Assembly (NCBI RefSeq): GCF_001610835.1
Contig: NZ_CP011270.1
Span: 7,871,256-7,935,255 of the forward strand
Origin: Planctomyces sp. SH-PL14
GTDB taxonomy: Bacteria > Planctomycetota > Planctomycetia > Planctomycetales > Planctomycetaceae
DNA: 64,000 nt
Direction: 5' to 3'
Shown here: positions 13,792 to 29,907 of the stretch, piece by piece
Position numbering within the stretch: the first letter of the stretch is position 1
How the letters are laid out: the number at the start of each line of letters is the position of its first letter
Made by a program: the position numbers and the translations under genes
The notes under the pieces: model-generated
Database searches by the model: none
The model's input: the letters and a program-made list of their open reading frames with translations, nothing else
What the model was told of the DNA's origin: nothing

Positions 13792-13863
13792 GGTCCCGTG
13801 GTCCAGCGGCCACGACTCCTGGCTTACATCCAGGCAACGATGGTTCGAGTCCATCCGGGATCA
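13792..13863 (+). tRNA. tRNA-Val (anticodon TAC); its 3' end is the island attachment site
   Basis: Acceptor GGTCCCG/CGGGATC, anticodon arm CCTGG-CTTACAT-CCAGG, T-arm GATGG-TTCGAGT-CCATC, discriminator A. Confidence 0.8.
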
Positions 13864-15131
13864 CTAGTTCTCTTCAAGGAGGGAAGGCTTTTTCCTCGCT
13901 TTCTTGGTTTTTGCTTGGCGTCGTCCATGTGGGTGTCACCGTCGGGCACACTCGGACCGTCGCCGGCAGTCACTGACAAGTGTGCAGAGTAGTGTGCAGC
14001 ATCGGTCGCCCGGGAGAAGTCCTCGTCGCGGACTTGGAGGTAGTTCTTGCTGGCGACCTGCACTGAATGTCCGATCCATTGGCAGACGACGTGAATGGGG
14101 AACTCGGCCGCCAGTTCGGTCTCTCGGGTGGCCCGCAGGTTATGGAACAGCTTGCCCCAGGGCTCCAGGCCGGCGCGACGGATCGTCTGCAGGAGACGCG
14201 TCCGCAGGTTGCAGCTCCGGTCTCGATACCGCGTGATCACAAAGCCACGTTTGTCTTCCGCCGCGGCGTAGAGCGACTGGAGTAGCGGACGCAGCTCCGG
14301 GAACAGGGGAATGGTCCGGCTTCCCTTTCCGCTGTGTCGCTCAGTCTTGGGTGACGTCACAACGATCCGTCCTTTCTTCCAGTCGACGTCCTTCCAACGA
14401 AGTGACAGATGCTCGGACGGGCAGCGGAGACCTCCGAATCGGCCCAGGGCGAACACAAGCCGCCATTCGTCGTCCAGGCACGCCGCCAGGACCTTGTCAG
14501 CCATCTCACGGGTCACGAAGAAGTCTCGCGATCTGTTCTCCCGGACAGTCCGAGGGATGTCGCGGTGAATGAACGGATTCCGGTTGACGACCCCGCGGTC
14601 GGCTGCGTCGGTGAAGAACTGACTGGCGATCGAACACATCTTGCGGACCGTGTTTTCGGACAAACCGCGGCCCGGCCCCCTGCCCTCTCGAAGCATCCAG
14701 TGTCGGAAGTCCTTCGCTTCCCCCAGCGAGACAGATTCGATGGGGCGGTCGTCGCCGAAGACCTTCACCAGATAGCGACGGCAACGTCTCCAGAGGACCT
14801 TGCTCCCTTCGCACACATCGCCACGGCCGGAAATGTAGTCGGCGGTGAAGCCCCCAATGGTGACCGGCTTCGCTTCTGCGGTCGGCCTTGCGATCAAGCC
14901 GTGCGTGTAGAGCTTCTGCCGCATCACGTCGCCGCAGTCCGCAACCCAGGCCGCCGTTTCCGCGGGGACCGCCGTGCTGGCTGTTTGAGAGGTCAACAGT
15001 TGTTCCAGATGCCGCTTGACCCCCTCTGCCGCCTTCTTGGGCATCTTGCCGGGATAGAACGACTTCTGGACTCCGTCGCGGTCCACGTAGCGGATGTTCC
15101 AGGCGTTGCGATTCTTTGAGAGAGATGCCAT
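13824..15131 (-). CDS. int: Tyrosine-type site-specific integrase (phage/P4-like); C-terminus overlaps tRNA-Val on the opposite strand
   Basis: 435 aa with the catalytic R...HxLRHT...Y region (LFHNLRATRETELAAEFPIHVVCQWIGHSVQVASKNYLQV) and a SAM-like N-domain. The stop at 13824 falls inside the tRNA-Val 3' half, typical of tRNA-targeting elements. Confidence 0.9.
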   Translation of the reverse strand: MASLSKNRNAWNIRYVDRDGVQKSFYPGKMPKKAAEGVKRHLEQLLTSQTASTAVPAETAAWVADCGDVMRQKLYTHGLIARPTAEAKPVTIGGFTADYISGRGDVCEGSKVLWRRCRRYLVKVFGDDRPIESVSLGEAKDFRHWMLREGRGPGRGLSENTVRKMCSIASQFFTDAADRGVVNRNPFIHRDIPRTVRENRSRDFFVTREMADKVLAACLDDEWRLVFALGRFGGLRCPSEHLSLRWKDVDWKKGRIVVTSPKTERHSGKGSRTIPLFPELRPLLQSLYAAAEDKRGFVITRYRDRSCNLRTRLLQTIRRAGLEPWGKLFHNLRATRETELAAEFPIHVVCQWIGHSVQVASKNYLQVRDEDFSRATDAAHYSAHLSVTAGDGPSVPDGDTHMDDAKQKPRKRGKSLPSLKRTSDPGWTRTIVAWM

Positions 15132-15215
15132 CGAGACTCCGTTGTGCTGGGAAAAGAGAAACGCCCCGTCAGCCGCGAGGGCCGCCGGGGCGAATAGCCG
15201 ATGGGACCTGCCGCC

Positions 15216-15806
15216 TCAGATGCGGACGCCGATGGAACGGAGCGCCTCATGGGCCTCCTGCTCCGCCGCGACCGGGCAAGCCTGATTCAGGACCACGAGG
15301 CGGACGTCGGTGACGCCGGCAATGTCGAACTCGTGGCGGCCGACCTTGGAGAGCCGGACCAGGCCGGCAGGCTCCACAGGCTTCTCCGCGGGCCGCCGAA
15401 CCGGGCGACCGGCCGTCAGGGTGGCGAGGCACTCGCGGGCCTTCTGAACCGCAACCTCGTCGTCTCCAAACGAGTTGGATACGAGAATCTCGACGTCCTC
15501 AAACCCAGGGATCTGAACGAGACGACGATCATCCCGGCCGACCGCCAAGTCGACTTCCGGACCGTAGCCGGAGGCAACGTCGAGGGCCTCGGCCGCCGTC
15601 AGGCAGAAGCCGGCGAGCGCCCTGAGTTCTTCTGCCGCGAAGTCGGCAGGACTCGCCCCGGAGATGTCCGAATGGCGACGCACTTTCAGGACTCGGTAGC
15701 CCTCTCCCACATCTTCGATCCGCACGTCGCCATCGAACGTGTCGTCGATGATGTGCTGGACCTCTTCCAAGCTCAGAACCTTTTCTTGTTTCACTACGTC
15801 GATCAT
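15216..15806 (-). CDS. Hypothetical protein (island), intact member of a tandem duplicate pair
   Basis: 196-aa ORF MIDVVKQEKVLSLEEVQHIIDD.... A paralogous copy lies immediately upstream. Confidence 0.5.
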   Translation of the reverse strand: MIDVVKQEKVLSLEEVQHIIDDTFDGDVRIEDVGEGYRVLKVRRHSDISGASPADFAAEELRALAGFCLTAAEALDVASGYGPEVDLAVGRDDRRLVQIPGFEDVEILVSNSFGDDEVAVQKARECLATLTAGRPVRRPAEKPVEPAGLVRLSKVGRHEFDIAGVTDVRLVVLNQACPVAAEQEAHEALRSIGVRI

Positions 15807-15829
15807 CTGGATAAACTCCGTGAATTGGT

Positions 15830-16356
15830 CTCCGCCGCGTTGTCGGCAAAACTCTTCGGCGGAGACTGGTGACTTCGGCCGTGGGGAACGTCCCCGCGGC
15901 CTTTTCTTTTGACACGTCCCCCGCGGGAAACGTGACCTCGCGGACTCGCCGGGCGTCCAACATGCTGCCGATGGCCTCTTGGGCCATCACCAACGCCTCG
16001 TCTTGGTTGCCAGCGTTGTGGACAAGGATTTCAACGCTCTCGTAGCCCCGAATCTCGAAGCGGTGGCGTTAGCCCCAACGAGGGACAAGCGAGGGCAGCC
16101 CAGCGTCGAGGCCAGCGGCCTCCGCGATCTCGTCAGCAGCCGCAATGGAACGCCCGGAGACCTGACGCATCACGGACGAAACGAACTCCGCAGGAGACGC
16201 TCCGGGCGGCGATCGGAAAGCCTTCGGCCTGATCCAGACGCGAAGCTCGCCGGCCGCGTTCCGGGACACGCCGGCCTGCCCGTGGAACGCCTTTCCCACT
16301 GTGATGCGGGCCTCCCCGAGGCTCGATTCTTGGGCCGGCTCGGCCGTGTCGATCAT
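15830..16356 (-). pseudogene. Disrupted paralog of 15216..15806 (in-frame TAA at 16069-16071 and a later frame change)
   Basis: Translation MIDTAEPAQESS...AEFVSSVMRQ...PRWG*RHRFEIRGYESVEILVHNAGNQDEALV... aligns to P1 (MIDVVKQEK...ADFAAEELRA...FEDVEILVSNSFGDDEVAV) across the stop. Confidence 0.4.
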
Positions 16357-16647
16357 CTGTCGACCTCCCTTCAAAAGAGAAACCCCGCTGGCCGCCAAGG
16401 GTGAAGCTTGGCGACCGCGGGGTCGGAGCATCGGACGGCCAGCACGCCGCCCGATCGATTGTTTTGCCCTCCACCCCGGTCCCTTCACCGAACCAGCGTG
16501 GCGTGTTGGCTGGGAATATAGAGCCCTTTCCCCCCTGCGGAAAGCACAAAATCACTATGTGCTTTTCACAAATGCACCACACAGTGCGTAAGTGATTTGC
16601 CGTTCATTACTTGCCGTCTCTAGGATTTTTGAACAGAGGGGGCAAAC

Positions 16648-16935
16648 TTGGCGCGTTCCACCGTCACGCTGACAGAGATTGAAGCCTTGGCCGCGGACCT
16701 TGAACGGTCCGCTGGGCGGCTGCGCAAGGCGATTGCGGACGCCAGGGCTTCGGGGATTGATTCGCTACAGCTTCATTGGTCGAGGGCCAGCGGAGCCCAT
16801 TTGTCAGCAATTGGCCGGGTGGCAAAAGATGCTGAGGTTCAGGCAGATGACGCCGCAAGGGCCAAGAGCCTGGGGATCAAGACGGCGGCGGAGTCGTACA
16901 AGGCTACTGCGGCGAAACGTAAGGCTCGCGGATAG
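16648..16935 (+). CDS. Small hypothetical protein (TTG start), first gene of the lower-GC module
   Basis: 95-aa ORF preceded by GAGGGGG. It follows an AT-richer 100-bp promoter-like region at 16540-16647. Confidence 0.4.
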   Translation: MARSTVTLTEIEALAADLERSAGRLRKAIADARASGIDSLQLHWSRASGAHLSAIGRVAKDAEVQADDAARAKSLGIKTAAESYKATAAKRKARG

Positions 16936-17031
16936 GCACAGTCGCTCTCCAGGCTTCGTTGTGAAGCCGGTTTACCCCACACGGAGGCCGGGGGTATTCT
17001 TCGGCCACACCCCGTGTTAGGAAGGGTCCAC

Positions 17032-18243
17032 ATGCCATTCGCGTATCGTGACACGGACGGCAGCTTTAGTGTCGTCCACTCGGCGAATGCCGCCCCCGGA
17101 GACGTCGAGGCATTCGAACTCCCCGCCGACTTTCGAAAGTGTCCTGGAAGCGCATACAGGAGGGAGGGCGACTGCCTCGTCCCTGACACGCAGAAAAACT
17201 TCGAACGCGAAGAAGCTGCTCGATCCGCCTGCGCCAAGGAGGTCAGCGAAAACTGGACAACCGGACTAGACATGCCTGAGCCCGTAGTTCTGGATCCAGA
17301 ATCGGTAACGTTTGGGGATGCGGACCAGTTTTCGCAATCAATTGTAGAAAAGGCCGCCGCCCGTGGCCTGATTTTGATTTCATCTTCCGTTCGTAAGTTG
17401 GTCAACTTGGCGTTCTACGGGAGCCTTGAAGAGGAAGAAGGACGCTGTTATCCGATTAGACTAGAGCTGATTGCCCCGGGCGCATTTCCTCGCCACAGAG
17501 GTGAGATTCTGCGATTCGAGGATAGCAAGGAAGTGACACCTCGCGTACTGGCGAGATTGGCTCCCGGGCTCGACCCAACGCAATCAAACTTCTTGATTGA
17601 GCAAGGCCCGCCATTGAAACTTTGGGGGATAGGAATTCGCGACAGGTCGCTGTACCGATGGACGACCAATGACTTAAACACGTCCGACTTCTCTCGGCCT
17701 CCGCGGGGCTTGGTTGTACGGAGCGTCGGCCCGGGACACCTGATTGCCGAATACGCCAATACTCGCTTGGGTGAGTTTAAACGAGGCGTGTTCTTCGAGA
17801 ATTTTGTACAAGTGTTTTCGGACGACGGCCCAATAAGGCGATTCCTAGACGGAAACAAGCTGGATGTGCATTTCGCCGACTCATCCATCCGTGACACTAC
17901 GCACCGCCTCGTTTCGAAGTGTGCGGAGAGCGGCCACGGTGGGCTCATCGCCATAGTTGGGAACAACGATTTGGAGGCATTGGCATCGGGCGGCTTAATT
18001 GATCGCGGCGTGTCAATCGGCTGGCCGGCCGTTGAGTCATACTTGAAAGGTAGAGGCGAACTTTGTGAGAGGCCCGGTGCCAAGTACGACACGTCAACCG
18101 ACGAAGCCATGAGTGATATTTGGCTGACGGGCACAGGGGCAATCCTGAGAGACAAAGCTTCCATGATGTATTCATATCGGCACTTGCAATGGCTAGCATC
18201 GCTGAAAGGAGCGACCGGACGTTATGAAGCTGCCGAGGAATAA
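17032..18243 (+). CDS. Unknown ~300-aa N-terminal domain fused to the first half of a diadenylate cyclase (DAC/DisA_N) domain; terminated by a TAA that splits the DAC domain
   Basis: RBS AGGAAGGG-5-ATG at 17032. The C-terminal ...ESGHGGLIAIVGNNDLEALASGGLIDRG... matches the CdaA/DisA 'GALIV...YIETG' block. The same frame continues after a single stop into the 18286 ORF. Confidence 0.55.
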   Translation: MPFAYRDTDGSFSVVHSANAAPGDVEAFELPADFRKCPGSAYRREGDCLVPDTQKNFEREEAARSACAKEVSENWTTGLDMPEPVVLDPESVTFGDADQFSQSIVEKAAARGLILISSSVRKLVNLAFYGSLEEEEGRCYPIRLELIAPGAFPRHRGEILRFEDSKEVTPRVLARLAPGLDPTQSNFLIEQGPPLKLWGIGIRDRSLYRWTTNDLNTSDFSRPPRGLVVRSVGPGHLIAEYANTRLGEFKRGVFFENFVQVFSDDGPIRRFLDGNKLDVHFADSSIRDTTHRLVSKCAESGHGGLIAIVGNNDLEALASGGLIDRGVSIGWPAVESYLKGRGELCERPGAKYDTSTDEAMSDIWLTGTGAILRDKASMMYSYRHLQWLASLKGATGRYEAAEE

Positions 18244-18285
18244 TGGCGACTTCGAGCAGGCGAATTAATCGATGCAATAGACGCG

Positions 18286-18615
18286 GTGAGTTTCTTGGCC
18301 CATCCTGACGGTGCATTGATACTCGGCACCGGCCTGCAAGTGTACTCATTCTCCTCGAAGATTCAGAATGTGCAGCAGGTGTCGGTATATCGTGCAAAGG
18401 ATGCATCGGCCTCAATGATTGAGCCGTTTTCATCCAAAGAACTTGGGACGCGACATCGTTCCGCGATTTGGCTAGCAAGCTGCCTTCCGAACAGTTGTGT
18501 TTTTGTAATTTCCGAGGATGGGGTCGTTTCCGCCATAAGACAATGGAAAGGCAGGCTCATCCTTTGGCGGCCAATTACTACCGGCAGGTTCGACACGGTT
18601 TCAGGAACGAATTAG
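18286..18615 (+). CDS. Second half of the DAC (c-di-AMP synthase) domain, with DGA and GTRHR motifs; same frame as the upstream ORF, 14 sense codons after its TAA
   Basis: ...FLAHPDGALILGTG...PFSSKELGTRHRSAIWLAS...CVFVISEDGVVSAIRQ parallels B. subtilis CdaA PLHDGAVII...ISKELGTRHRAA...TIVVSEETGGVSVA. Confidence 0.55.
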   Translation: MSFLAHPDGALILGTGLQVYSFSSKIQNVQQVSVYRAKDASASMIEPFSSKELGTRHRSAIWLASCLPNSCVFVISEDGVVSAIRQWKGRLILWRPITTGRFDTVSGTN

Positions 18616-18891
18616 CGTGCTTGTCAAGTTGCTTCCTACTAAGCCCGCCGCGCGGTCGTTGGGAGCTTACGCCACCGTGGACTTGCATCCGGATGAATTC
18701 CGGGACTGGCCTGCGAACCTATAGGTCTGCCATGAGTCTATCGGGCAGAGCGTTTTAGAAGTCAGGCAAGAACCTTCCCGTGTTACGGCGAGATCCCGGC
18801 AAGCCACTGAAGAGATAATCTTTCGTCGCAGGTGACCAGGTGAATTCGCGGCAGTGTCGGTTGTTGTTCAGTACGTTGTTGACGAGGCAAA

Positions 18892-19698
18892 TTGATGGAA
18901 GACGCTGCCTGCTACATGTGCGACCGGCCAGCCACGTCGAGGGAGCACGTCCCCCCGAGATGTCTTTTCCCCGAGATGAAGGACATCGGCGAGAATCACC
19001 GCGTCAACCTCCTGACGGTCCCTTCCTGCGACGAACACAACAGCGGGAAGTCAGCCGACGATGAGTTCCTGATGGCAAGTTTGGCCGGCATGACAGGGAA
19101 CAACCGAGTTGGAATTCTGCACAAGTTCTCAAAGGTCAACAGGGCGATCTTCCGTAGTTCTTTCGGCCTGCTGGACCAGGCGCTGTCGGACCAAACGATC
19201 GAATGGCTTGAAGTCTCGCCTGGGACGTTCCTAGATGTAACTTGGGGAAAGCCAGACTACGCCCGCTTGGCAAGGTGCTTCGAGCGAATCGCACACGGAA
19301 TGCACCTCTGCCACTTTGGACAAAGATTTCGAGGGACACTGAAATACTTGTTCGACTTTCCGACCAAGGATGGGCACTGGTCGGAGTCGGATGACGTTGG
19401 ACGAAGGAAGTTCGTCGAAGAATTCGACGGAAAACCGCGTCTTGGAAGTAATCCGGAGGTGTTCACCTACCAGTTCTCGATACCGGACCAATTAGGAGTG
19501 GCCAGCGCGCATTTTCAGTTTTACGGCAGTATGAACATCTATGTCGCCTTCTACCCCGGCCAGATCCAGCGTCTCATAGAACTGATGAATGAGGCGCGTG
19601 GAGTCGCCAAGCCCGTGTACGCGTGGCTGGGAGGAAAGCTCTACGCATTGAATTCAGCCGCGGTTGAAGATGACGGTGCATCACTCAGGGACCTTTGA
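18892..19698 (+). CDS. HNH-endonuclease-domain protein (N-terminal CxxC...H...C..HN motif) with an uncharacterised ~200-aa C-terminal domain
   Basis: CYMCDRPATSREHVPPRCLF...VPSCDEHNSGKS is a canonical HNH/His-Me finger. 268 aa, lower-GC codon usage like the DAC gene, GAGG RBS. Confidence 0.7.
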   Translation: MMEDAACYMCDRPATSREHVPPRCLFPEMKDIGENHRVNLLTVPSCDEHNSGKSADDEFLMASLAGMTGNNRVGILHKFSKVNRAIFRSSFGLLDQALSDQTIEWLEVSPGTFLDVTWGKPDYARLARCFERIAHGMHLCHFGQRFRGTLKYLFDFPTKDGHWSESDDVGRRKFVEEFDGKPRLGSNPEVFTYQFSIPDQLGVASAHFQFYGSMNIYVAFYPGQIQRLIELMNEARGVAKPVYAWLGGKLYALNSAAVEDDGASLRDL

Positions 19699-20217
19699 AA
19701 ATCCCCTCCCCAGCCCGGCCTTTCGACCGGGACAGGGTTCATCGAAGGAACCCGACGAGAAGGCGATTCCAACCGCGTCCGCCAAGGTCCTCTGTCTGGG
19801 GCGATTCTCGGCGTCACTCAAGGGGCAGCACTCCGTTCAGCGATTCGCTTGTTTGACCGATAGACGTGAAATGACCCCACTCCCCACAGGTCACTCCAAC
19901 GCAGCAGCGATATCGCCACGCGATGTTGCCCATCATGCAGCATCATGACCGGCAAGAATGTTTGCTCCCAAGGACTTGTCTCCCTGACCAGTCGGCGACG
20001 GGCCTCAAGAGGCAACGCCGAGATCGAATCGTCCGAGCCCTGAATCAGGCGGGCGAGAGGCGCGTATAAGAGTGGGTACGCAAGCATCGCGACGACACAC
20101 AGGACGGCGTATCGAATTCGTCTGGTCAAGTCACACCCCCTGCAGGTCATCGTAGCCTCCCTGTCACGGAGTCAGATGCTATTCCTCGACGCCATACCCT
20201 GTTTGTGCTCCTAACGT

Positions 20218-20300
20218 CCCCGCACTCCGGCGACCAACCGGCGACGGGGATCATCCAAGTTACCACAGATCAGGGTCCGCAGTTGCGGACGGTTCAGCAC
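20218..20300. repeat. ~85-bp direct repeat (copy 1) flanking the WD40 gene; 3'-flank relic of a lost paralog
   Basis: CCCCGCACTCCGGCGACCAACCGGCGACGGGGATCATCCAAGTTACCACAGATCAGGGTCCGCAGTTGCGGACGGTTCAGCAC is ~80% identical to 21629-21712. It contains the hairpin GTCCGCA-GT-TGCGGAC. Confidence 0.6.
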
Positions 20301-20460: not shown

Positions 20461-20530
20461 AAGACACCCGCGTGTGCCTGGGCAGTTGCCAGAGGATGGT
20501 TGGGGCCGTGTTTCAATCGGAGGAGCCGAG

Positions 20531-21595
20531 ATGCGTTGTCATTGGGCAAGAGGCGTGTTGTGTCTTGCCGCCGTTTTGACGTCGTTCCTGTTTTATCCGG
20601 TGGCCGCCGCCGGCCGCATTTTTTCGTCAAAGTTGAGCCTCAGCTTTTCGGCGGATGGAAGACAGATTGCGGTCGGCGGCCGGGGACTGCGAATCTTCGA
20701 CGTCGCCACCGGTCAGCTCCTGGAGACGTTCGGAGATCCCCACCAAGACTTGTTCACCTGCGTCCTCTGTTCCCCCACCGATACGTCGCTAATCGCGGCG
20801 GGCGTACATGGAAAGGGCTTCAAACTGTTCCGGCGCGGGTCGGCCGATCCGATCGTGGAATACCGGACGAATCAGCCTCTAAACCGCGAAGCGATCTTCA
20901 GGAAAGATGGCCAGCGTCTTCTGACCTCGTCCGGCAGAACCGATAACGCAGACCTGAGAAAGTACCAGCTCTGCGAATGGGACGTGACCAGCGGCAAGCA
21001 GATTCGCTCCCTCGAACGCGAGGGGGAGATTCGGGCTTTGGCTGTCTCGCCGAACGGACGTCGGCTGGCCTTCTGTTCCCGAGGCAATGTGGAGGTGCTG
21101 GACTTCGAAACGTGGGACGTATTCGGCGCCGCGGAACTTCCGTTAGGCGAATTCATTGCCAACCCGCGCGTGACGACAGCGGTGTTTGCCGCCGATGATG
21201 GGCCTCTCCATCTCTTCGGAATTGCCAGCCTTCCCGCCCCGCCTAACGGCGTCAACACCAGCACGCGGTGGGTCGTCGACTTTGAGAAGGATGTGATGCT
21301 GCACCGCGAGACAACGTCGGGGGCTCTCTTCGGGGTCGGCACGGCGAACCGCGACGCCATCATCGAAGTGTTCGACGAGCCAGGGCAGGGGCAGACAGTT
21401 CGGTCCCGGCTGGAAAATGGTCATGTCCAGTGGAGATTCCAGACGCCCTTCCGGTGGAAAGAAATGACGTCTCCTTACAGCATCCAAGTCTCGCCGGATG
21501 GAAAGTGGGTGGCGTGGTGCAATGGTGACGCGGTCTGTCTGTTGGACGCCGAGACGGGGACGGACCTGCGAACAATCGAAGTTTCAGACGAGTAG
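20531..21595 (+). CDS. Secreted WD40/beta-propeller repeat protein
   Basis: Signal peptide MRCHWARGVLCLAAVLTSFLFYPVAAAG (RBS GGAGGAG), then repeated ...SADGRQIAVGG.../...SPNGRRLAFCS.../...SPDGKWVAWCN... propeller blades. Confidence 0.7.
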   Translation: MRCHWARGVLCLAAVLTSFLFYPVAAAGRIFSSKLSLSFSADGRQIAVGGRGLRIFDVATGQLLETFGDPHQDLFTCVLCSPTDTSLIAAGVHGKGFKLFRRGSADPIVEYRTNQPLNREAIFRKDGQRLLTSSGRTDNADLRKYQLCEWDVTSGKQIRSLEREGEIRALAVSPNGRRLAFCSRGNVEVLDFETWDVFGAAELPLGEFIANPRVTTAVFAADDGPLHLFGIASLPAPPNGVNTSTRWVVDFEKDVMLHRETTSGALFGVGTANRDAIIEVFDEPGQGQTVRSRLENGHVQWRFQTPFRWKEMTSPYSIQVSPDGKWVAWCNGDAVCLLDAETGTDLRTIEVSDE

Positions 21596-21628
21596 GACGC
21601 GAAAACGATACCGATAGCCTTTATCCCC

Positions 21629-21714: not shown

Positions 21715-22233
21715 TCACACAGCGAGGACGGACGCCGAGGACCTCAGTCGCCGCAGCTTGGACGTGAGCTCGACGAACCACCGGAGGTTTGCCACGCGGG
21801 CCGCTCTACGCTTCTCGATGAAGAACCTGAGATCATTTTGCTTCTGAAGTACCGCCCGGACGATTGGGTGGCGTCGGACCATCCTCCATGAGTACGCGGC
21901 CGGAATTCGCTGTCCCTCAATCGGGTCGAGAAACCCGGCCGCCCGAAGCTTCACCTTTGCGGCCTCCTCGGCCGGCTCCCTCTCGGCCTCGCATTTGTCG
22001 AGACGAGCCTTTGCCGTCTCCAGGACCTTCCGGACATAACCCTCGTAGGCGGTCCGGAACGCGATCTCTTGCTCCATGAGGGAAGGGATCGAGCCCTCGG
22101 GGGCCTCCTGCCGGTTCAACACGAGGTCCTCTCGCAACGACCAAACCACCCGCCGTTCCTGAATCAGTGAACGCGGGAGCCACTCCGCCGCCGGGACGAC
22201 CGGGAGTGTCGAATGCCGCGAATGTGTTCCCAT
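21715..22233 (-). CDS. Hypothetical protein, tandem paralog family member 1
   Basis: 172 aa. Shares N-terminal ...STLPVVPAAEWL... and C-terminal ...LAV with the next gene. Confidence 0.55.
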   Translation of the reverse strand: MGTHSRHSTLPVVPAAEWLPRSLIQERRVVWSLREDLVLNRQEAPEGSIPSLMEQEIAFRTAYEGYVRKVLETAKARLDKCEAEREPAEEAAKVKLRAAGFLDPIEGQRIPAAYSWRMVRRHPIVRAVLQKQNDLRFFIEKRRAARVANLRWFVELTSKLRRLRSSASVLAV

Positions 22234-22377: not shown

Positions 22378-22953
22378 CTACACCGCCAGGATCGCGGCGT
22401 CACGAAGCGTTTCGAGCCGCCTCGTGAGGGTCGCCACTTCCTGCTGGTTGGTCCGCATCAGCGACAGATATCCCTCGATCTCGCCGGCGACGCCGTCCCG
22501 CTTGTCCTTGGCCCCGCGGACGTGCGGGTGGCGGATGAGCATGTCCGGCGTATACGTTCCCATTGCCGGGGCACCATTGACGAGTTCGAGGTAGCCCATA
22601 TCGAGCAGCCGGTCGCGGATCGCCTTCTCGGCCGCCTGGGCGTCTTCCCCGCACGTCGTCTCGTAGGCACGGCACTCGGCCACGAGGTCTTTGACGAAGC
22701 CGTCCAGTGACCGGCGGAACTGATACTCGGCCTGCAGCAGCGGGAGGAGTTCAAACTTCGTCGGCTTGAACGACGCGAGGTCGGCCGAGCGAGCGCGTTC
22801 CAGCGAAGCGACAACGGCCGCTCGCTTGGTTTCGATCGCCGCACGCTCCGCGGCAACGGCGTCGCGCAGCTGGTTGAGGGAGTCGGACAACCATTCCGGC
22901 GAGGGGACGGTCGGGAGCGTGGAGAAACTGGGCTGGGTAATGAGAGGTTCCAA
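22378..22953 (-). CDS. Hypothetical protein, tandem paralog family member 2
   Basis: 191 aa, ...STLPTVPSPEWLSDSLNQ...RRLETLRDAAILAV. Homologous to 21715..22233. Confidence 0.55.
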   Translation of the reverse strand: MEPLITQPSFSTLPTVPSPEWLSDSLNQLRDAVAAERAAIETKRAAVVASLERARSADLASFKPTKFELLPLLQAEYQFRRSLDGFVKDLVAECRAYETTCGEDAQAAEKAIRDRLLDMGYLELVNGAPAMGTYTPDMLIRHPHVRGAKDKRDGVAGEIEGYLSLMRTNQQEVATLTRRLETLRDAAILAV

Positions 22954-23024
22954 TATGGAAGAGAGAGGGTTTCGGGCCGAGGACGCCTCGGCCGTGACAG
23001 AGGTTGCCGGTCGTCCGGCGAGAG

Positions 23025-23318
23025 TCAGTTTGCCGGCGAGCCGAGTTCTTCGAGGCGGGCCTTGATGTCGGCCGTCCGCGTGCGGTTCTCAGCCAACAGC
23101 GGATCACCGACGAGCGACCGCCATTGCTCCGACCGAAGGAAGGCGGCGGACAGCGGGAGTTTGTTCAGGATCGCCCGGAACCGTTCGATGACCTCGCACG
23201 TCTGCGGCTCGACGCGGAGGGCGAACGCCTCCAATGCGGTCTCGAACGCCTCCGGGGCGGTCTGGGGGTTGGGAAGCTCGGAGATGGAAGGGGCAGTCGA
23301 CACAGGGAAGCCTTTCAC
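23025..23318 (-). CDS. Small hypothetical protein upstream of the paralog array
   Basis: 97-aa ORF with consistent orientation. No motif recognised. Confidence 0.35.
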   Translation of the reverse strand: MKGFPVSTAPSISELPNPQTAPEAFETALEAFALRVEPQTCEVIERFRAILNKLPLSAAFLRSEQWRSLVGDPLLAENRTRTADIKARLEELGSPAN

Positions 23319-23518: not shown

Positions 23519-25501
23519 TCAGCCGTCTGTTTCGACGAGAGCGACGCCGTTCTGCGTCAGGTATTGATTGAGGTTCTTTGTCGCGATCAGAAGCTCGTCG
23601 AGCGTCCGGGCAGAGTCCGCCGTGTTCTTCGCGGTCTGGTCCTCGGCGTTCATCTTGCCGGCCTGAGCCGCCAGCAAACTCTTCTGGTCGTCGCTGATGC
23701 CGAGGTTGAGGGACTCTCGCTTTTGGACACGTCCTTCGAGTTGGGCAGTCTTCTCCTGTGCTGCCTCCAAACCGATCTTTGCCCGCTCCATCGCGGCGTC
23801 GCGGTCACTGAGGACACCGCCGGTCCGCAGGTCGTCGACCCGCTTAAGACGTTTGGCACGCTTTTCGGCCGGCGTCTCGTTGCTCTCGCGGATCTGGTCC
23901 GCCTCGGACGTCATCTGGTCGAAGTCCGCAACGGACCTCTCTACGAAGGGCTTCGTAGCCTCAGCCAGTCCTACCGCCTTGGTCGACATGTTCCGCCCCC
24001 ATGACGAGGCATTCTTGAATGCCTTGAAGCCGAGTCTCTTGGCTACGTCGAGGGAGGACGCCTTCTTGGGTTCCGTCGCGGCCTGCTCGTCCTTGATCCT
24101 GGTCTCCTCATCCCGAAGGGCTTGGAGGTTCTCGCGATTGGCATCGCGTCTCGCCTCGGCGTCCTTGATGTCTTGGCGAAGGGAGTCCAGCTCGGAGGAG
24201 CCGGCTCTATTGTCCAGCGCCCAGTTTCCCCAAGTGTTGCTCTCTTTCAGGTTGTTCTCGGCGTTCGTCACTCCGTCGACAGACCCTTGCAGCTCGACCT
24301 CGGCCATCCGGATCTTCTCGGCGATGTCCTTCCGGCGGTCCCCAAGGTTGGTCTTGGCCCGGTTGTCGTCGAGGGACTTCTGCGTCCGCTTGCGATCGAC
24401 GTCCTCAAGCTCGGAGTTCAGCCGCTTGGAGATGGCAAGCTGTTTGTTGTACTCCTCGGTCTGACTCGCCCATCGAGCGATTGCCGCACCGATCGCGGTG
24501 GCGATCGCCGCAATGGCGAGCAATCCCCCTCCGCCGCTCGCGATGGCCCCGATGCCCTTCATGGCCTTCATGACCCCGCCAGCGGCACTGACGACTTGGG
24601 TGAAGCCCAGACTGACGCCGGTCGCCGCGATGCCGAAGGCAGTGAGGGCCGATCCAGCGACCGCGGCACCGGCGGAAATCTTGCCGAAGGTCGTCACTGA
24701 ATCTTCGTGCGTCTTCAACCAGGCCGTCGCCTGCGGGATTCCCTCCTTGAACCAGTTGATCCAGTCCGTCAGCTCGCCGGCCACGGCGGCCCCGATGGCG
24801 TTCTTGACGCCGCCGATCGCCATTTGCAGCTCGTCGAGAGCGTCGCCGAGGGCCGCGGCGGCCTGAGCGTCCTCGGTCGTCATCGTGATGCCGAGTTCCT
24901 CGGCCGACTTCACCAGCTCTTCGATCCCCTTCCGTCCGCCGGACAGCATCGGGATCAGCTCCGTTCCCGACTTACCGAAGACCTTCATGGCCAGAGCAGT
25001 CCGTCTCGACGGGTCCTCAACGCGGGACAGAGCCTCGGCGATGGCCAGGAGTGCCTGATCGGGGCTCTTACCCTTCAGGTCACCAACGGAAAGGCCGAGG
25101 TTCCGGAGGGACTCGACCGCCCCCTTTGACTCCTCGTCGGCGGAGTAGAGGGAACGGGACATGGCGACGATCGCCTTCTCGCACGCCTCGATGCTCGTGC
25201 CGCTCATTTGGGCCGCATACCGCAGCTCGCTGATGAACTTGACGGCAACGCCCGTCCGCTGGGACATGTCGTCGATTGCACTGCCGGCGTCGGCGTATGA
25301 CTTCGAGAGGGCCAGCATTCCGGTTGCGGCACCCGCTCCGGCCGCGGAGAGCAGTGCCCCGGCCTTCGTCGCGAACGAGCCGAACGCTTTCAGGCGGTTC
25401 TGCATCGTCGTCAGCGACTTGTCGAGCTTGCCGTCGACGGCGACGAACGTTACGTGGGCCTTCCCGCTCTCAATTGAGCCCGCCGGGGCTTGTTCAGACA
25501 A
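23519..25501 (-). CDS. Phage tail tape-measure-like protein (TP901-type core region)
   Basis: 660-aa ORF, Ala/Gly-rich with coiled-coil and hydrophobic segments. ...KVFGKSGTELIPMLSGG... resembles the TMP core motif. No other tail genes are adjacent. Confidence 0.6.
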   Translation of the reverse strand: MSEQAPAGSIESGKAHVTFVAVDGKLDKSLTTMQNRLKAFGSFATKAGALLSAAGAGAATGMLALSKSYADAGSAIDDMSQRTGVAVKFISELRYAAQMSGTSIEACEKAIVAMSRSLYSADEESKGAVESLRNLGLSVGDLKGKSPDQALLAIAEALSRVEDPSRRTALAMKVFGKSGTELIPMLSGGRKGIEELVKSAEELGITMTTEDAQAAAALGDALDELQMAIGGVKNAIGAAVAGELTDWINWFKEGIPQATAWLKTHEDSVTTFGKISAGAAVAGSALTAFGIAATGVSLGFTQVVSAAGGVMKAMKGIGAIASGGGGLLAIAAIATAIGAAIARWASQTEEYNKQLAISKRLNSELEDVDRKRTQKSLDDNRAKTNLGDRRKDIAEKIRMAEVELQGSVDGVTNAENNLKESNTWGNWALDNRAGSSELDSLRQDIKDAEARRDANRENLQALRDEETRIKDEQAATEPKKASSLDVAKRLGFKAFKNASSWGRNMSTKAVGLAEATKPFVERSVADFDQMTSEADQIRESNETPAEKRAKRLKRVDDLRTGGVLSDRDAAMERAKIGLEAAQEKTAQLEGRVQKRESLNLGISDDQKSLLAAQAGKMNAEDQTAKNTADSARTLDELLIATKNLNQYLTQNGVALVETDG

Positions 25502-25746
25502 CGAAGACTCCTTGAATGAAATGGGGGGCTCGGCGCGGACCGTAGGCCCCGTGGAACTCGAAAACCTGTGGCCTGAAACCGCCTATGCGGTGGGCGGCGA
25601 CTGCGTGTCGCCGGCAGCCCCGATTTCGCGAAATGCTGGAATTTGTTTACGCGTGTAAATACCTACAGGGTGGGCACCTCGCTGGCGTAGAGGGAAAAGC
25701 GTTTCGGCTCAGGAAGGACCCGCGAACCGCTCATGCTCCTCTGCGT

Positions 25747-26106
25747 TCATGGAACGCCTTGAACGGGTCGGCTAGATTGCTGGAGAACGCGGCCTTCTCG
25801 TCCATTCTCTTGCGAGCCTCCATGATCCTTGGAACGGTTCATTGTGGAACACACGGCGAGTGCCGCGGTGCTTTTGTGTGTCAGCATCTTGCCCGCGGTT
25901 CGGGCCTCGGCTTCTACCAGCCGGACGCTCCATCCTCTGAGGGCGATGAGATCGAAGAGGAAACTGCGTGGTGCGGAAGCTGTGAATGCGTGCGAGTGGA
26001 ACAAGGGGGATGGAACGACATATCGGAAGCGTTCGCCTCTCCCGTCTTGATCTGTGAACACTGCTTCGAGGCGGTCCGTGGACGGAACGAGCAAGGCCAC
26101 GAACAA
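25747..26106 (-). CDS. Hypothetical protein (island); alternative to a Cys-rich plus-strand ORF 25585..26115
   Basis: 119-aa ORF co-oriented with neighbouring island genes. The choice between the two strands is uncertain. Confidence 0.25.
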   Translation of the reverse strand: MFVALLVPSTDRLEAVFTDQDGRGERFRYVVPSPLFHSHAFTASAPRSFLFDLIALRGWSVRLVEAEARTAGKMLTHKSTAALAVCSTMNRSKDHGGSQENGREGRVLQQSSRPVQGVP

Positions 26107-26118
26107 CGCAGCTAGGGG

Positions 26119-26328
26119 TCAGGCTTGCTCAGTCGTAACGATGCCCCACACTTTGACCGAGCACATCTTCTCGCTGACGTCCTTGTAGGCGTCTTTCGTG
26201 TTGATTTCCGAACCGGTCTGAAGAACCAGGACGGCAGTCCCGGTCGGGCTTCGGCGCACAACGGAGATCGAACCGAGTGGGATTGTGACCAGACCTAAAC
26301 CCTCGGCGTGAACCTGTACTGCGGGCAT
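26119..26328 (-). CDS. Small hypothetical protein
   Basis: 69-aa ORF co-oriented with island genes. Confidence 0.3.
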   Translation of the reverse strand: MPAVQVHAEGLGLVTIPLGSISVVRRSPTGTAVLVLQTGSEINTKDAYKDVSEKMCSVKVWGIVTTEQA

Positions 26329-26380
26329 TCATTGGTGTCCTGAAAGGGAAGTGGAAGAGGGACGAACCGGAGAGCGTCGA

Positions 26381-26593
26381 CTACTTCGGCAGGCGAGAGA
26401 TCGGCTTCCGAGGCCACTTGGCGGCGTCGAACCTCGCCTGCATCCTTGCGGCCTCAGCCTTCGCTGCGGTGGCCTCCGCCTGAGCCTTCCTCAAGTCCGC
26501 CTTCGCGACTTCGAGCTTCCGCACGAGGGCGGCCTCTCGCATCGCATCTGCAGCCTGAAACGAGCTGGGCTTCTTGATTCGGGAAACGTTCAC
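26381..26593 (-). CDS. Small coiled-coil protein (hypothetical)
   Basis: 70-aa Ala/Lys-rich ORF. The iteron-like repeats lie in its upstream region. Confidence 0.35.
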   Translation of the reverse strand: MNVSRIKKPSSFQAADAMREAALVRKLEVAKADLRKAQAEATAAKAEAARMQARFDAAKWPRKPISRLPK

Positions 26594-26611
26594 TTCGAAC
26601 TCCTGGGGGTT

Positions 26612-26806
26612 GGAATGGACAACGACTTCAACGACTTCAACGGTTTCACCCGGGTATGTGTTCCCGCCGAGGGGCCGTTGAATGTGGGTTTGAGAAGAGA
26701 AAACACGCCCGTGTGAAGCCGTTGAAGTTGTATAAGTCGTTATATGTATTTCTAGAAAACAGACTTACATCACCGACGACTTCACACATTTCAACGACTT
26801 CATCAC
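26612..26806. repeat. Iteron-like cluster of >=8 copies of the 9-mer AACGRCTTC in direct and inverted orientation around an AT-rich core (candidate element origin/Rep-binding region)
   Basis: AACGACTTC|AACGACTTC|AACGGTTTC at 26621-26647. Inverted GAAGCCGTT-GAAGTTGT-ATAAGTCGTT at 26716-26744. AT-rich TATATGTATTTCTAGAAAAC. GACGACTTC...AACGACTTC at 26776-26803, overlapping the stop of the primase-like gene. Confidence 0.5.
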
Positions 26807-28335
26807 GAGGCTGCGGCAGCCAGCTCACCGACGGCGACCGGCTCGGCCGGAGCGAACGCGGCGGCATAGAAGGTCGCCGTCCTGCTCTTCCCGCTCATCG
26901 TCTGGACTTTCCGAATGATGTCCGTCGCCTCAAGCTCGGTGACCAACTCGTAGCGATAGCGGGCACCCATTCGCTGAAACCGGATGGTGACCTGTGACTG
27001 CGTCGCTCCGCCGCGTCCCTTCTCAGTGATGAACGCGACAATGGCCGCCTTGTCTCGCTCACGTTCGTTCTCGCCGACCTTCGATGCACACTTCATGTTT
27101 GCAACGGTCAGCCAGTCGGTGAGGGCGATCGCCCAATCCATGTGGGCCTTCTCGATGCTGAAGTCTCGGTCGATGGGGACCTGTGAGGCCGCGAAGATGA
27201 GGGCGAGACTGCTGGCCCGTTCCGCGGCTCGGGCGTAAATCGAAGCTCCCTCGTCCTCGGTGTAGGTGGCCGCCAGGACGTCGCACCGGCGGCGGAACCG
27301 TTCCCAAGCGAGCTTGGCTTCCGGCGTCACGGGAATCGTCCGCATCTCGCCGGGCTCCCATGTCACGTCGCCCTCATGGGGCCGGTATTTCGCCGCAACC
27401 TTCATCCGGTTGAGGAGGGGCTCCGGGATCGGGACAGCTTCGACGCTCTGGTGGAGCGGTCGCGAGCTGTCGTCGCCGTAGAACACGAACCGCGAGTTGA
27501 ATCCGTCTCGGTTGTTCTCCGCCGTCAGGAATCGAAGCGACTCCGGCGTGCCGGTCGCATAGATCACCAAATGCGGCATGTCGATGACGCGGTCCTTGTC
27601 TGAATCGGCGAACTTCTTCGGGACGAAGTTGCGGAGACCGCAGGACGTGAACAACCGCATGATGAGAGAGATCAGCAGCACGAGGGGGCCGGACGCCTTT
27701 TCGTCGTTGGCGACCCTTAGGAACTTCCCGAACTCGTCGAGGGGCCACAGACCGGCCGGTTGCGTGCTGAGGGCGTCTGCCAACGCGGAATCGCTCGTCA
27801 TGTCGCCTGGCAGGATGTACTCGGGACAACCGGCGGCCGTGGCGACCTCATTGAACGCCTCCAACACGCGGTTCTTACCGGCTGCGGACTTCGCGAACGT
27901 CGCAACGAAGATGTTGCCCTTTGCCCCCAGCGACCTTTTGATCTTGCGGCCGATGAGGCACGAGACGAGGCAGATGCCCCCCAGCAGAGCGAGGACGGGC
28001 TGCGGACGCGGGGACGTCCGGACGGTGTAGTAGGCGAAGTCCACCAGGGCGCCGGCGTGTCCGTAGAACTCGCGGGGGAGTCCGTCCTGACCCGGCTCGA
28101 TTTCGAACTCATTGCACATGGTCGAGACGAACTCATCGAAGCTCGCCTCATCGGGAATGCCGTAGTGGCGATGGCCGCTGTGGTCGTCGACGTAGTCTCT
28201 CAGCTCATCGGCCGACCAATCACGTTCCCTTGTCAGTCGTGCGATTGCCTTGATCGACGCCCGCATGAAGAGCTTGTCGAATCGGGACGATGGGTTGCCC
28301 GCGAGAAACGACAGGTCGCGGCTTTCAAAATCCAT
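26803..28335 (-). CDS. Element replication/primase-like protein (DUF3987-like; function inferred from context)
   Basis: 510-aa ORF at the far end of the island next to the AlpA-like gene, as in P4-like islands. Degenerate P-loop-like FAKSAAGKN. No confident catalytic motif. Confidence 0.5.
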   Translation of the reverse strand: MDFESRDLSFLAGNPSSRFDKLFMRASIKAIARLTRERDWSADELRDYVDDHSGHRHYGIPDEASFDEFVSTMCNEFEIEPGQDGLPREFYGHAGALVDFAYYTVRTSPRPQPVLALLGGICLVSCLIGRKIKRSLGAKGNIFVATFAKSAAGKNRVLEAFNEVATAAGCPEYILPGDMTSDSALADALSTQPAGLWPLDEFGKFLRVANDEKASGPLVLLISLIMRLFTSCGLRNFVPKKFADSDKDRVIDMPHLVIYATGTPESLRFLTAENNRDGFNSRFVFYGDDSSRPLHQSVEAVPIPEPLLNRMKVAAKYRPHEGDVTWEPGEMRTIPVTPEAKLAWERFRRRCDVLAATYTEDEGASIYARAAERASSLALIFAASQVPIDRDFSIEKAHMDWAIALTDWLTVANMKCASKVGENERERDKAAIVAFITEKGRGGATQSQVTIRFQRMGARYRYELVTELEATDIIRKVQTMSGKSRTATFYAAAFAPAEPVAVGELAAAAS

Positions 28336-28456
28336 TTGGCTCGTTGCCTTCCGTTCACCTGAGAGAGTGTTTGAAGGCCGAGTGGGGAAGGCGAAGAACC
28401 CACCCGGCCGCCGCGGGACATGACCCCCGTGGTTTACGGTGCTGCGGACGATGCCG

Positions 28457-28702
28457 TTACGCGGACTGCGTCGTCGCCTTGCCGGGCTTCCGCTTCGGGC
28501 AGCCCGCCGCGAGCCAGGCGTCGATCGACAATCGCGTCCATCGTTTCAGCTTCCCGAAACGAACCGGCTGCGGAAGAGTTCCGTCCGCGTCCATTCGGCG
28601 AACCTGTCGGAGCGAGATCCCGATTCGCTTGGCGAGGTCCGCCGCCGAATGCGTGTCAGCATGGGTGGCGGGCGGCGTCTGATGGATCGATTTCATGTTC
28701 AT
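28457..28702 (-). CDS. alpA: AlpA/excisionase-family HTH regulator
   Basis: ...AADLAKRIGISLRQVRRMDADGTLPQPVRFGKLKRWTRLSIDAWL matches the AlpA/HTH_17 pattern (LxxxLxxSxxTIYRxxxxGxFPxPxKxGxxxxRWxxxExxxWL). Confidence 0.75.
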   Translation of the reverse strand: MNMKSIHQTPPATHADTHSAADLAKRIGISLRQVRRMDADGTLPQPVRFGKLKRWTRLSIDAWLAAGCPKRKPGKATTQSA

Positions 28703-28946
28703 CGCGTGTTCGATTGGTGTCTTTGAGTGTCCCTCTATAGAACCCGGGACTGTGGCCTCTGGTTTTCGCGCCGTAAGGGGTTGCGTCGACGCCAGTCGTT
28801 CCCGAATCGGCGCAAGTTATGTAAGGCTCCCCTGATAAAACCTGGGTCAATCTCGAAGATCGACGTAAGCGTTTCGGAACGCCTGGGCGCACATCTGGAC
28901 TGCCCTGGAAACGAAAAGACCCGCCATTTGGCGGGTCCGATGCGAT

Positions 28947-29771
28947 TCAGAAGCGTTGTTTCTTGGGCTTCTTTCTGGACTTGGCCCTTCGACGTTTTTC
29001 GCCCAGTTCCTGAGCGTCCTGACGCTTCATCCGTCCCCAATCGTCCTCCATCCAGCTCATGACGCGGTCGACCCGTGGCACCGTCCTCTTGTCTGTGTCG
29101 TTGGGGTCGACTTCGCTGGACCCCCAAAAGCTGAAGATCCTCAACCGCTTCAGACCAGACTGATCATCGTACCCCAGGTGATCGGAGATGGCCTTGTTGG
29201 TCATCTTGCCGCCGGAGTGGAACAGAAGCCCCGTGGCGATGACGTCCTTCCACTCGTCTCCGATCCGATCAATCGTGCCTTTGAAGTCGATCTGCGCCTC
29301 CTCTTCGGGCGAGTCCGGATGAAACACCATCTGCAGACGGATGCGGCGAATCAGGATGTGGGCGACGTCGCGAGCCGTATGCCAGCGGTCCCATAGACGG
29401 TCCGGAATCAGCCGCAGTTCTCCAGAGACCGGCGAAGCGTCGTGGATCGCCTCCAAGGCGTCGCACGCCCCCAGGAAGGGCGTAGTGTCGAACTGACGCG
29501 AATGGTCGCACCACGTTGCCAGGATGTTCGTCAGCGCACGGAACTCGGGCAGCTCCTCAAGGGCGTAGCTGGTCGCATCGTCCGGATCGGCGTCCTTCTG
29601 GCTCGGCCCCCAATTCGAGAGCCAGAGCCAAAGTTCCAAGAGGGTGTCGAGCGGCTCGCGGCCCTTGCCGAGCTTCTCGGCCCACGCCCTTCGCGACGCA
29701 GTTTCAGACAGCAGCCCTTTCGCGTAGCTCGCCCATTTGTCGACGTCTCCGCCGAAGTCGCTGACCTTCAT
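28947..29771 (-). CDS. Hypothetical protein (island-border gene)
   Basis: 274-aa ORF. No motif recognised. Ends KKPKKQRF. Confidence 0.5.
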   Translation of the reverse strand: MKVSDFGGDVDKWASYAKGLLSETASRRAWAEKLGKGREPLDTLLELWLWLSNWGPSQKDADPDDATSYALEELPEFRALTNILATWCDHSRQFDTTPFLGACDALEAIHDASPVSGELRLIPDRLWDRWHTARDVAHILIRRIRLQMVFHPDSPEEEAQIDFKGTIDRIGDEWKDVIATGLLFHSGGKMTNKAISDHLGYDDQSGLKRLRIFSFWGSSEVDPNDTDKRTVPRVDRVMSWMEDDWGRMKRQDAQELGEKRRRAKSRKKPKKQRF

Positions 29772-29892
29772 CGTGAACCTCTTTCATCCTGACGGGGTCC
29801 AGAACATGCGTCCCGGGCCGCCTGTAGTGTGCAACGAAGTGTGCAGATTCGAAACCGGCCCTGTTTCCCTTGGGAATCGCAGCAGGTTTCAG

Positions 29893-29907
29893 GTCCATCC
29901 GGGATCA
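29893..29907 (+). repeat. attR-like direct repeat of the tRNA-Val 3' end (GTCCATCCGGGATCA)
   Basis: Exact 15-mer copy of 13849-13863. Flanking bases also partly match (TTCAGGTCC vs TTCGAGTCC). Confidence 0.55.

Follow-up and report, generated by a model that had tools for sequence, protein, structure and literature searches.

A tape-measure-bearing integrative element at tRNA-Val(UAC) of Planctomyces sp. SH-PL14, a possible phage satellite

In the chromosome of Planctomyces sp. SH-PL14 (contig NZ_CP011270.1) a tRNA-Val gene and a tRNA-Asp gene are separated by some 16 kb of other genes, one of which resembles the tape-measure gene of a phage, and the question raised by this locus is whether those 16 kb are a mobile element and, if so, of what kind. 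The locus lies within a stretch of 64,000 nt (positions 7,871,256 to 7,935,255 of the forward strand) that is called the window here and whose own numbering is used unless another locus is named. An earlier note, made from the letters of the window alone, had described a genomic island in the 3' end of tRNA-Val, more like a satellite or defence island than a full prophage. Our analysis showed that 13864-29907 is a 16.0-kb integrative mobile element belonging to a family of at least five members, that its recombination and replication modules are intact and that the family backbone is conserved. With moderate confidence, and by analogy with satellites described in other hosts, we read it as an integrative, satellite-like element that brings along its own tape-measure protein (TMP) and, we infer, depends on a helper.

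Insertion of a 16.0-kb element at tRNA-Val(UAC)

The boundaries of the element and the genes and sites of its recombination module are as follows (ORF, open reading frame; HTH, helix-turn-helix).

13792..13863 (end at 13863/4), plus strand: tRNA-Val(UAC), target of the integration; the element rebuilds its 3' end (ARAGORN; Rfam tRNA 56.7 bits)
13849..13863, plus strand: attL core, a 15-bp block identical to the tRNA-Val 3' end
29893..29907, plus strand: attR core, where the 15-mer is repeated, with tRNA-Asp 76 nt downstream
13824..15131, minus strand: tyrosine integrase, 435 aa, its ORF crossing attL and stopping inside the tRNA (PF00589 and PF13102, Phage_int_SAM_5; phrog_1, 7.8e-36)
13979..13998, plus strand: two copies of AGTGTGCA, 12 nt apart, candidate arm-type sites of the integrase-side arm
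29826..29845, plus strand: two copies of AGTGTGCA, 12 nt apart, candidate arm-type sites of the far arm
28457..28702, minus strand: HTH_17/excisionase-like (AlpA-like) DNA-binding protein, 81 aa (phrog_597, 1e-10; phrog_66, 1.1e-8)
15216..15806, minus strand: 196-aa family-conserved gene just upstream of the integrase (31% identity to L090 13524-14279, E 1e-13)
28947..29771, minus strand: 274-aa gene adjoining attR (34% identity to L090 2164-2907, same end position)

Two exact copies of the 15-mer GTCCATCCGGGATCA, 16,044 bp apart, are present in the 64-kb window (13849-13863 and 29893-29907); no third copy was found there when up to two mismatches were allowed, and exact copies arose in 0 of 100 dinucleotide-preserving shuffles of the window. 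The 15-mer consists of the last 2 nt of the T-loop, the 3' strand of the T-stem, the 3' strand of the acceptor stem and the discriminator A, and when the comparison of the repeats is carried on into the T-loop, 18 of 20 nt match (family D17). The analysis also covered 121 other loci, most of them from Planctomycetaceae, and wherever the 15-mer occurs in these it lies inside a tRNA-Val 3' end; it is not a dispersed repeat. The direct repeat of the tRNA-Val 3' end that the earlier note had seen bracketing the island is thus exact at both ends and not frequent elsewhere, and its second copy is where the note had placed it; it does not stand immediately before tRNA-Asp, however, the spacing being 76 nt. 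Joining the flanks is predicted to give an attB junction that reads ...GGTTCGA-GTCCATCCGGGATCA-GTTTTTTTGAG... (in longer form ...GATGGTTCGA-GTCCATCCGGGATCA-GTTTTTTTGAGTGG...), and the predicted attP junction of the element reads ...GGTTTCAG-GTCCATCCGGGATCA-CTAGTTC... (in longer form ...GCAGCAGGTTTCAG-GTCCATCCGGGATCA-CTAGTTCTCTTCAAGG...). Window positions 12787-15385 recur with 100% identity in a Logan contig (L001), and the same junction is therefore present in an independent sample. Island genes, which were selected by GC content at third codon positions (GC3) together with conservation in relatives, have a GC3 of 0.60-0.83 versus ~0.9 for host genes, and overall GC drops to 54-56% at 17-20 kb of the window.

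The tRNA genes on the two sides, called by ARAGORN with Rfam in agreement for most, are three on the left (Gly(gcc), Ser(cga) and Val(tac), 13568-13864) and six on the right (Asp(gtc) at 29984, followed by Tyr, Ser, Arg, Cys and Leu, to 31050). Six related genomes (L010, L034, L042, L073, L074 and L075) have Val(tac) and Asp(gtc) as neighbours, 13-84 nt apart, and in two of the six (L034 and L042) the order is Ser(cga)-Val(tac)-Asp(gtc) with a Val-Asp gap of 78-84 nt. The empty site rebuilt from the window by joining 13863 to 29908 has a 76-nt spacer, and both of its tRNAs align with their orthologs. Since relatives keep Val and Asp adjacent, the island is an insertion between them; the comparison with island-free relatives that the earlier note had called for yielded the empty Val-Asp site, and its ancestral order Gly-Ser-Val-Asp is borne out by the Ser-Val-Asp and Val-Asp adjacencies of related Planctomycetaceae. 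These empty-site relatives are other species, the closest relative having 82% amino-acid identity in the Band_7 protein, whose gene (31238-32554) lies downstream of the tRNAs and has relatives in many Planctomycetaceae genomes. Syntenic arrays of 30-40 tRNA genes stand upstream of the Band_7 gene in many Planctomycetaceae (L009, L034, L042, L063, L069, L070, L078 and L081), and the same array is reduced to 3 + 6 tRNAs in the window. Several arrays contain kb-sized gaps (for example L002 4037-7463 and L073 4193-9349), which might be other insertions.

The integrase ORF is intact and, as had been noted earlier, its last 40 nt overlap tRNA-Val on the opposite strand. The integrase of a related element (L090), which also overlaps a tRNA-Val(tac), has 58% identity to it over 423 aa. 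The ORF spans the att core and its last 13 codons are tRNA complement (window 13824-13863 and 29880-29907); in the predicted excised form a TGA directly follows the core and the integrase would be 9 residues shorter. Six copies of AGTGTGCA were observed in the window where 0.77 were expected, and four of the six form two same-orientation pairs with 12-nt spacing, one at each end of the island (13979/13991 and 29826/29838). Paired, spaced repeats at both ends are the usual layout of the arm-type sites of integrases. The 81-aa protein, which had been called alpA-like, was confirmed weakly: its PHROG matches to excisionases and regulators range from 1e-8 to 1e-10, HTH_17 (PF12728) reached 20.4 bits and so fell under the cut-off of 27, and its homologs in three related elements (L084, L085 and L089) are flagged PF12728.

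For the gene next to the integrase, the minus-strand 196-aa ORF was favoured because it has a homolog in L090, and an overlapping plus-strand ORF (15201-15872) was set aside; a strong terminator-like hairpin on the plus strand (15877-15901, an 11-bp stem with a T run) lies just after that plus-strand ORF. No homolog of the 274-aa gene was found in L084 or L085. Profile searches of the PDB with the 274-aa, 196-aa and DUF3987 families gave no match.

A conserved backbone with a tape-measure gene and a replication module

Between the two att-proximal regions lies a set of minus-strand genes that includes the TMP homolog and the replication gene with its putative origin.

23519..25501, minus strand: TMP homolog, 660 aa (phrog_8462, 2.7e-41, the best PHROG tape-measure match)
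26803..28335, minus strand: DUF3987 helicase-type replication protein, 510 aa, without a primase domain (phrog_3022, 3.4e-44)
26620..26802, no strand assigned: putative replication origin, an AT-rich stretch surrounded by 6-7 AACGACTTC iterons in direct and inverted orientation; it lies immediately 3' of the helicase gene

Four related loci were found through homologs of the DUF3987 protein and the TMP.

L084: 87% nucleotide identity over window 23595-28546; shared backbone, different cargo
L085: TMP 53% identical; shared backbone, different cargo
L089: TMP 59% identical; shared backbone, with a chaperone-position homolog upstream of TMP
L090: TMP 37% and integrase 58% identical; shared backbone, with a head maturation protease and a chaperone-position homolog upstream of TMP

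The four have in common the order HTH, DUF3987, iterons, small ORFs and TMP, followed, where the contig extends far enough, by cargo and then the integrase. Followed from attR in the minus-strand direction, the window has 274 aa, HTH, DUF3987, iterons, 70 and 69 aa, a Cys-rich ORF on the other strand, TMP, 97/191/172 aa, cargo, 196 aa and integrase. The five diverged elements are compact (roughly 12-16 kb) and keep the same gene order, with TMPs 37-84% identical to that of the window. In L090, which comes from a different host, the integrase ORF likewise ends inside tRNA-Val(tac) and the tRNA 3' end is repeated at the far boundary. L090 also contains a C-terminal integrase fragment (1591-2088), 88% identical to the resident integrase and beside a 30-bp att copy (2046-2075), and a shorter, 15-bp att copy at 3427; this arrangement suggests repeated or tandem integration at tRNA-Val in the past.

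The tape-measure-like gene of the earlier note was confirmed, both by PHROG matches and by homology to the TMPs of siphoviruses. Its 660-aa product matches an SH-PL14 protein, encoded on an 8.44-Mb contig, at 100% identity. Two phage TMPs (P0040 and P0020, 617-658 aa) have 41-43% identity to the island TMP over its N-terminal half and reside in complete siphovirus modules, and more distant homologs carry PF10145, some being named tape-measure proteins by their sources. The siphovirus modules run in the order terminase, portal, capsid, head-tail joining, Phage_tail_2 tube, two ORFs in the chaperone position, TMP and distal tail; in L092-L094 terminase, portal, major capsid and tail tube genes are all found around a homologous TMP. 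Since the relatives of the TMP sit in complete phage modules, the island holds a full-length TMP gene of a recognisable phage lineage, and its product has the full length (655-675 aa) of the phage proteins. A search of IMG/VR with the profile of the TMP family retrieved 27 loci, all of the full-phage type, and the island core was present in 0 of the 27.

Scans of the 16-kb island with Pfam, PHROG and NCBIfam detected no terminase, portal, major capsid or tail tube gene, and neither another virion-building gene besides TMP nor fragments of other phage genes were found in the island. A homolog of the phage chaperone-position gene lies upstream of TMP in L089 and L090 only, and L090 also carries the head maturation protease (phrog_94, 8.8e-35). 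A remnant of a tail-assembly-chaperone gene upstream of the window's TMP was considered and rejected, the long antisense frame there being the reverse of a zinc-ribbon ORF.

The gene that the earlier note had termed primase-like does encode a replication protein, but it has no primase domain and is a DUF3987 helicase instead. The phrog_3022 match covers just its C-terminal helicase part (365-785 of 788). The window protein itself had no Pfam match at E<=0.01; PF13148 is on record for its homologs P0003-P0007, which are 66-79% identical, and the relatives P0008 and P0009, which are longer, carry a primase domain. The DUF3987 proteins have invariant GK and DE motifs, which agree with the Walker A and B boxes known from helicases of this family. 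A DUF3987 protein of a mobile element has been demonstrated to be a 5'-3' helicase (PMC11724360). The iterons that had been proposed are present at 26620-26802, and the layout of the origin is constant across the family, while the iteron sequence varies along with the helicase (in L082, L083 and L085), as is expected of a cognate pair of initiator and origin.

In two of those loci the DUF3987 gene is solitary and has an iteron-like region of its own (L082 9930-11900 and L083 9956-11880), no tape-measure gene or integrase being near either of them; that of L083 is beside insertion sequence (IS) and resolvase genes. These solitary genes are probably remnants of related elements. A metagenome scan with the DUF3987 profile returned two short fragments only.

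The smaller genes of the backbone, and one ORF on the opposite strand, are listed next.

21715..22233, minus strand: core gene, 172 aa, paralog of the 191-aa gene (homologs in L084, 80%, L085 and L089)
22378..22953, minus strand: core gene, 191 aa, a predicted bundle of three long helices (AlphaFold2, AF2, confidence pLDDT 85.8)
23025..23318, minus strand: core gene, 97 aa (identity 87% to L084 and 51% to L085)
26119..26328, minus strand: core gene, 69 aa (homologs in L084, L087, L089 and L090)
26381..26593, minus strand: core gene, 70 aa, coiled-coil (homologs in L084, L085, L086 and L087)
25822..26115, plus strand: small Cys-rich zinc-ribbon-like ORF, 97 aa, opposite in strand to the core genes

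Between the window and L084, dN/dS is 0.07 for DUF3987, 0.17 for TMP, 0.22 for the 70-aa gene and 0.33 for both the 97-aa and the 172-aa genes; the core genes are under purifying selection. Because of these low values, what had been taken for duplicated and decayed paralogs, the 172-aa (dN/dS 0.33) and 191-aa genes, are conserved core genes. The pair is present in L084, L085 and L089 and absent from L090. Foldseek searches of the PDB and BFVD with the fold of these paralogs gave generic helical matches, none at E<=1e-3. The zinc-ribbon-like ORF differs from its L084 counterpart by 3 amino acids, and 617 nt around it are 92.6% identical to L084 versus ~87% for the neighbouring core DNA.

Cargo, candidate small RNA and neighbouring features

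The interval between the integrase-proximal genes and the core genes holds a candidate small RNA and cargo genes.

16375..16510, minus strand: candidate structured small RNA, ~135 nt, with three hairpins, the third of them an intrinsic terminator (z-score -3.79)
17032..18615, plus strand: interrupted gene with a DACNV sensor and a divergent diadenylate-cyclase-like (DAC) domain (PF21751, 3.9e-10)
18892..19698, plus strand: 268-aa ORF whose CxxC...EH...CxEHN motif resembles HNH (by eye only)
20216..20297, plus strand: left copy of a ~80-bp direct repeat flanking the WD40 gene
20474..21595, plus strand: WD40/PD40 beta-propeller protein, 373 aa
21628..21708, plus strand: right copy of the ~80-bp direct repeat

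L085 (11028-11171) and L089 (8556-8687) have copies of the small RNA in the corresponding position, upstream of their integrase regions. In the alignment of the three sequences 92.8% of cells pair, and compensatory changes were counted at 11 of 42 pairs (shuffles, 4.8 +/- 1.5; slid controls, 0-3); no Rfam family matched. Because three sequences are few, the ~135-nt RNA is a lead and is not proven.

Of the DAC/HNH module named in the earlier note, the DAC domain is there, at 23.5 bits and so under its cut-off of 27, but the gene is not intact. A single in-frame TAA (18241-18243) splits it, and the ORF past the TAA aligns at 66% identity with the C-terminus of an intact homolog (P0135, 484 aa), so that the gene is disrupted. 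The HNH assignment could not be sustained, the motif having been seen by eye and lacking profile support: the 268-aa ORF had no match in Pfam, NCBIfam, PADLOC or the PDB, its motif region alone had none in Pfam at E<=10, and its single-sequence AF2 model (pLDDT 31.9) was unusable. The ~80-bp repeat ends in a hairpin (GTCCGCA..TGCGGAC), and L084 has one copy of it, downstream of its 172-aa gene, which suggests that insertion or exchange of the WD40 cassette took place at the repeat. The cargo of L084 and L085 differs from that of the window and includes Schlafen AlbA_2, Vpar_1526 and HSDR_N_2 proteins; the interval from core to integrase and that from the HTH gene to attR are variable cargo slots. 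PADLOC found no defence system in the cargo of the window, L084 or L085. The earlier preference for a satellite or island over a full prophage is retained; "defence island" is a hint and not a result.

Elsewhere in the window, ARAGORN could not assign an anticodon to a tRNA at 49998-50068; by eye this is tRNA-Pro(TGG), and no other tRNA of the window scores as high in Rfam (61.7 bits). Downstream of it, at 50-55.8 kb, GC is lower and the ORFs have no Pfam matches. A second island at this tRNA was rejected, there being neither an integrase nor a repeat of the tRNA end.

A proposed life cycle and comparison with known satellites

In the life cycle that we propose, the tyrosine integrase would recombine the 15-bp core of attP and the 3' end of tRNA-Val(UAC), which has the same sequence; the tRNA would stay whole at attL, a copy of the 15 bp would be left at attR, and the paired AGTGTGCA repeats on both arms would serve as arm-type sites of the integrase. 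The 81-aa HTH protein may direct excision or activate the element. After excision the DUF3987 helicase would load at the adjacent iteron origin and the circle would be replicated with host priming, which is assumed because no primase was found. By analogy with the PLE and EPIP satellites, the element would be unable to build a virion itself; it would supply its own TMP, to which some relatives would add the tail-assembly-chaperone homolog and the head protease, and a helper siphovirus of an L092-like lineage would provide the rest of the tails into which these proteins are incorporated, the element thereby spreading as a phage satellite. Going one step further, we tentatively put forward a first Planctomycetota family of phage satellites: ~12-16 kb in size, specific for tRNA-Val(UAC), with the integrase frame running across the att core, with essentially one virion gene (a full-length TMP, joined in some members by the chaperone and the head protease), with chimeric tails on an L092-like helper siphovirus and with a conserved structured small RNA.

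Several results weigh against a satellite that supplies its own tape measure. The sequence data contain no observation of a helper phage, an excised circle, a same-species empty site or a packaged copy. In the island we recognised no small terminase subunit, pac/cos site, capsid-remodelling gene or repressor and found no primase; the clade of the window is without a chaperone homolog; and searches of Pfam, PHROG, NCBIfam and the PDB found no function for most core proteins. No family member was found in IMG/VR by single-protein searches with DUF3987 and TMP, by the attP junction or by DUF3987 and TMP profiles, which may reflect that Planctomycete viromes are unsampled.

It is rather unlikely, in our judgement, that the element is instead a phage-independent, integrative and self-replicating (plasmid-like) island, which would have co-opted its TMP, for example for a role at the envelope or in DNA entry, and would be transferred by some other route. 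Such an island would fit with the set of integrase, HTH, DUF3987 and iterons being a generic module of many islands, with the single virion-related gene of the window's clade and with the count of 0 family members in virome contigs. However, no relaxase, coupling protein or secretion gene was detected in the island, its TMP is full length (655-675 aa) as in the phage relatives, and the chaperone homologs of L089 and L090 and the head maturation protease of L090 are sensible only in virion assembly.

We find it very doubtful that a decaying prophage has left the integrase, replication and TMP genes behind by chance. A compact gene order that recurs in five diverged elements of ~12-16 kb with TMPs of 37-84% identity, core-gene dN/dS values of 0.07-0.33, exact att cores and arm repeats at both ends beside an intact integrase, and the lack of fragments of other phage genes in the island all argue against decay, although a TMP is normally a prophage gene, one cargo gene has a nonsense codon and the solitary DUF3987 genes of L082 and L083 look like remnants. 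A non-mobile ancestral locus with a chance repeat of 15 nt, which would accord with there being no empty site from the same species, is effectively refuted by the shuffles (0/100), the confinement of the 15-mer elsewhere to tRNA-Val 3' ends, the adjacency of Val and Asp in six related genomes and the presence of homologous elements in other genomic contexts.

In function, the closest parallels to a satellite-like element with its own tape measure are the PLEs of Vibrio, the EPIPs and the PICMIs. PLEs gave the first demonstration, in 2025, that a satellite can encode a tape measure (bioRxiv 10.1101/2025.01.29.635557), and mycobacterial EPIPs were then reported to do so (PMC12822802). PLEs encode their own TMP and a tail assembly chaperone, the TMP being distantly related to that of the helper and built into chimeric tails, and they carry a conserved regulatory small RNA; their authors pointed to predicted tmp genes in unrelated satellites and suggested that tail manipulation may be widespread (bioRxiv 10.1101/2025.01.29.635557). 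The present family is like PLEs in its full-length TMP homolog, in the chaperone homolog of L089 and L090 and in its candidate small RNA; sequence homology to PLEs was not detected, and no search aimed at it was made. It is unlike them in its recombinase, a tyrosine integrase that targets a tRNA, and in its replication protein, a DUF3987 helicase next to an iteron origin, where PLEs have a large serine recombinase and a RepA_N-type initiator, and also in the helper tail, expected to be of siphovirus type and not contractile, and in its host phylum, Planctomycetota.

PICMIs of Vibrionaceae combine an integrase, AlpA (PF05930 or PF12728), a DUF3987/DUF5906 'primase' and Fis with defence cargo (PMC10803314). 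Our element shares with them the integrase (PF00589) and DUF3987 and has an HTH protein that may correspond to AlpA (sub-threshold PF12728), but the Fis regulator (PF02954) was not detected in the island ORFs scanned with Pfam, the phylum is another one, and PICMIs are without a virion protein whereas this element has a TMP. EPIPs, which are TMP-encoding Mycolicibacterium satellites of ~11 kb (PMC12822802), differ in that their serine integrase, small terminase, head-tail adaptors, scaffold and capsid were not detected in the element.

P4-like, PICI and cfPICI satellites integrate into the 3' end of a tRNA by means of a tyrosine integrase, have an AlpA-like regulator and variable accessory slots, and replicate with a helicase-type protein whose iteron origin adjoins its gene. 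The element has counterparts of these features, its AlpA-like regulator and its origin being putative. Unlike P4, it has no primase domain, its integrase is without the P4-type arm-binding domain, and PHROG, Pfam and NCBIfam found no homologs of Psu, Sid or Delta in the island; unlike PICIs and cfPICIs, it is without capsid, portal and terS genes. Because the element departs from PICMI, P4-like, EPIP/cfPICI and PLE elements in features that define each of them, we regard it as a satellite-like integrative island and place it in no named satellite family.

To our knowledge, very few phages of Planctomycetota have been characterised and no satellites have been described from them. A Planctomycetota satellite family, if real, would support the suggestion of the PLE authors that tail manipulation is widespread, would represent a minimal system and would point to L092-like siphoviruses as candidate helpers, with further leads in its cargo slots, which vary, and in its conserved candidate small RNA. 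An island inserted in a tRNA with an integrase is routine; it is the conserved backbone that stands out, with its helicase-only replication module, an origin that co-evolves with the helicase, and a full-length tape-measure gene as the sole structural gene.

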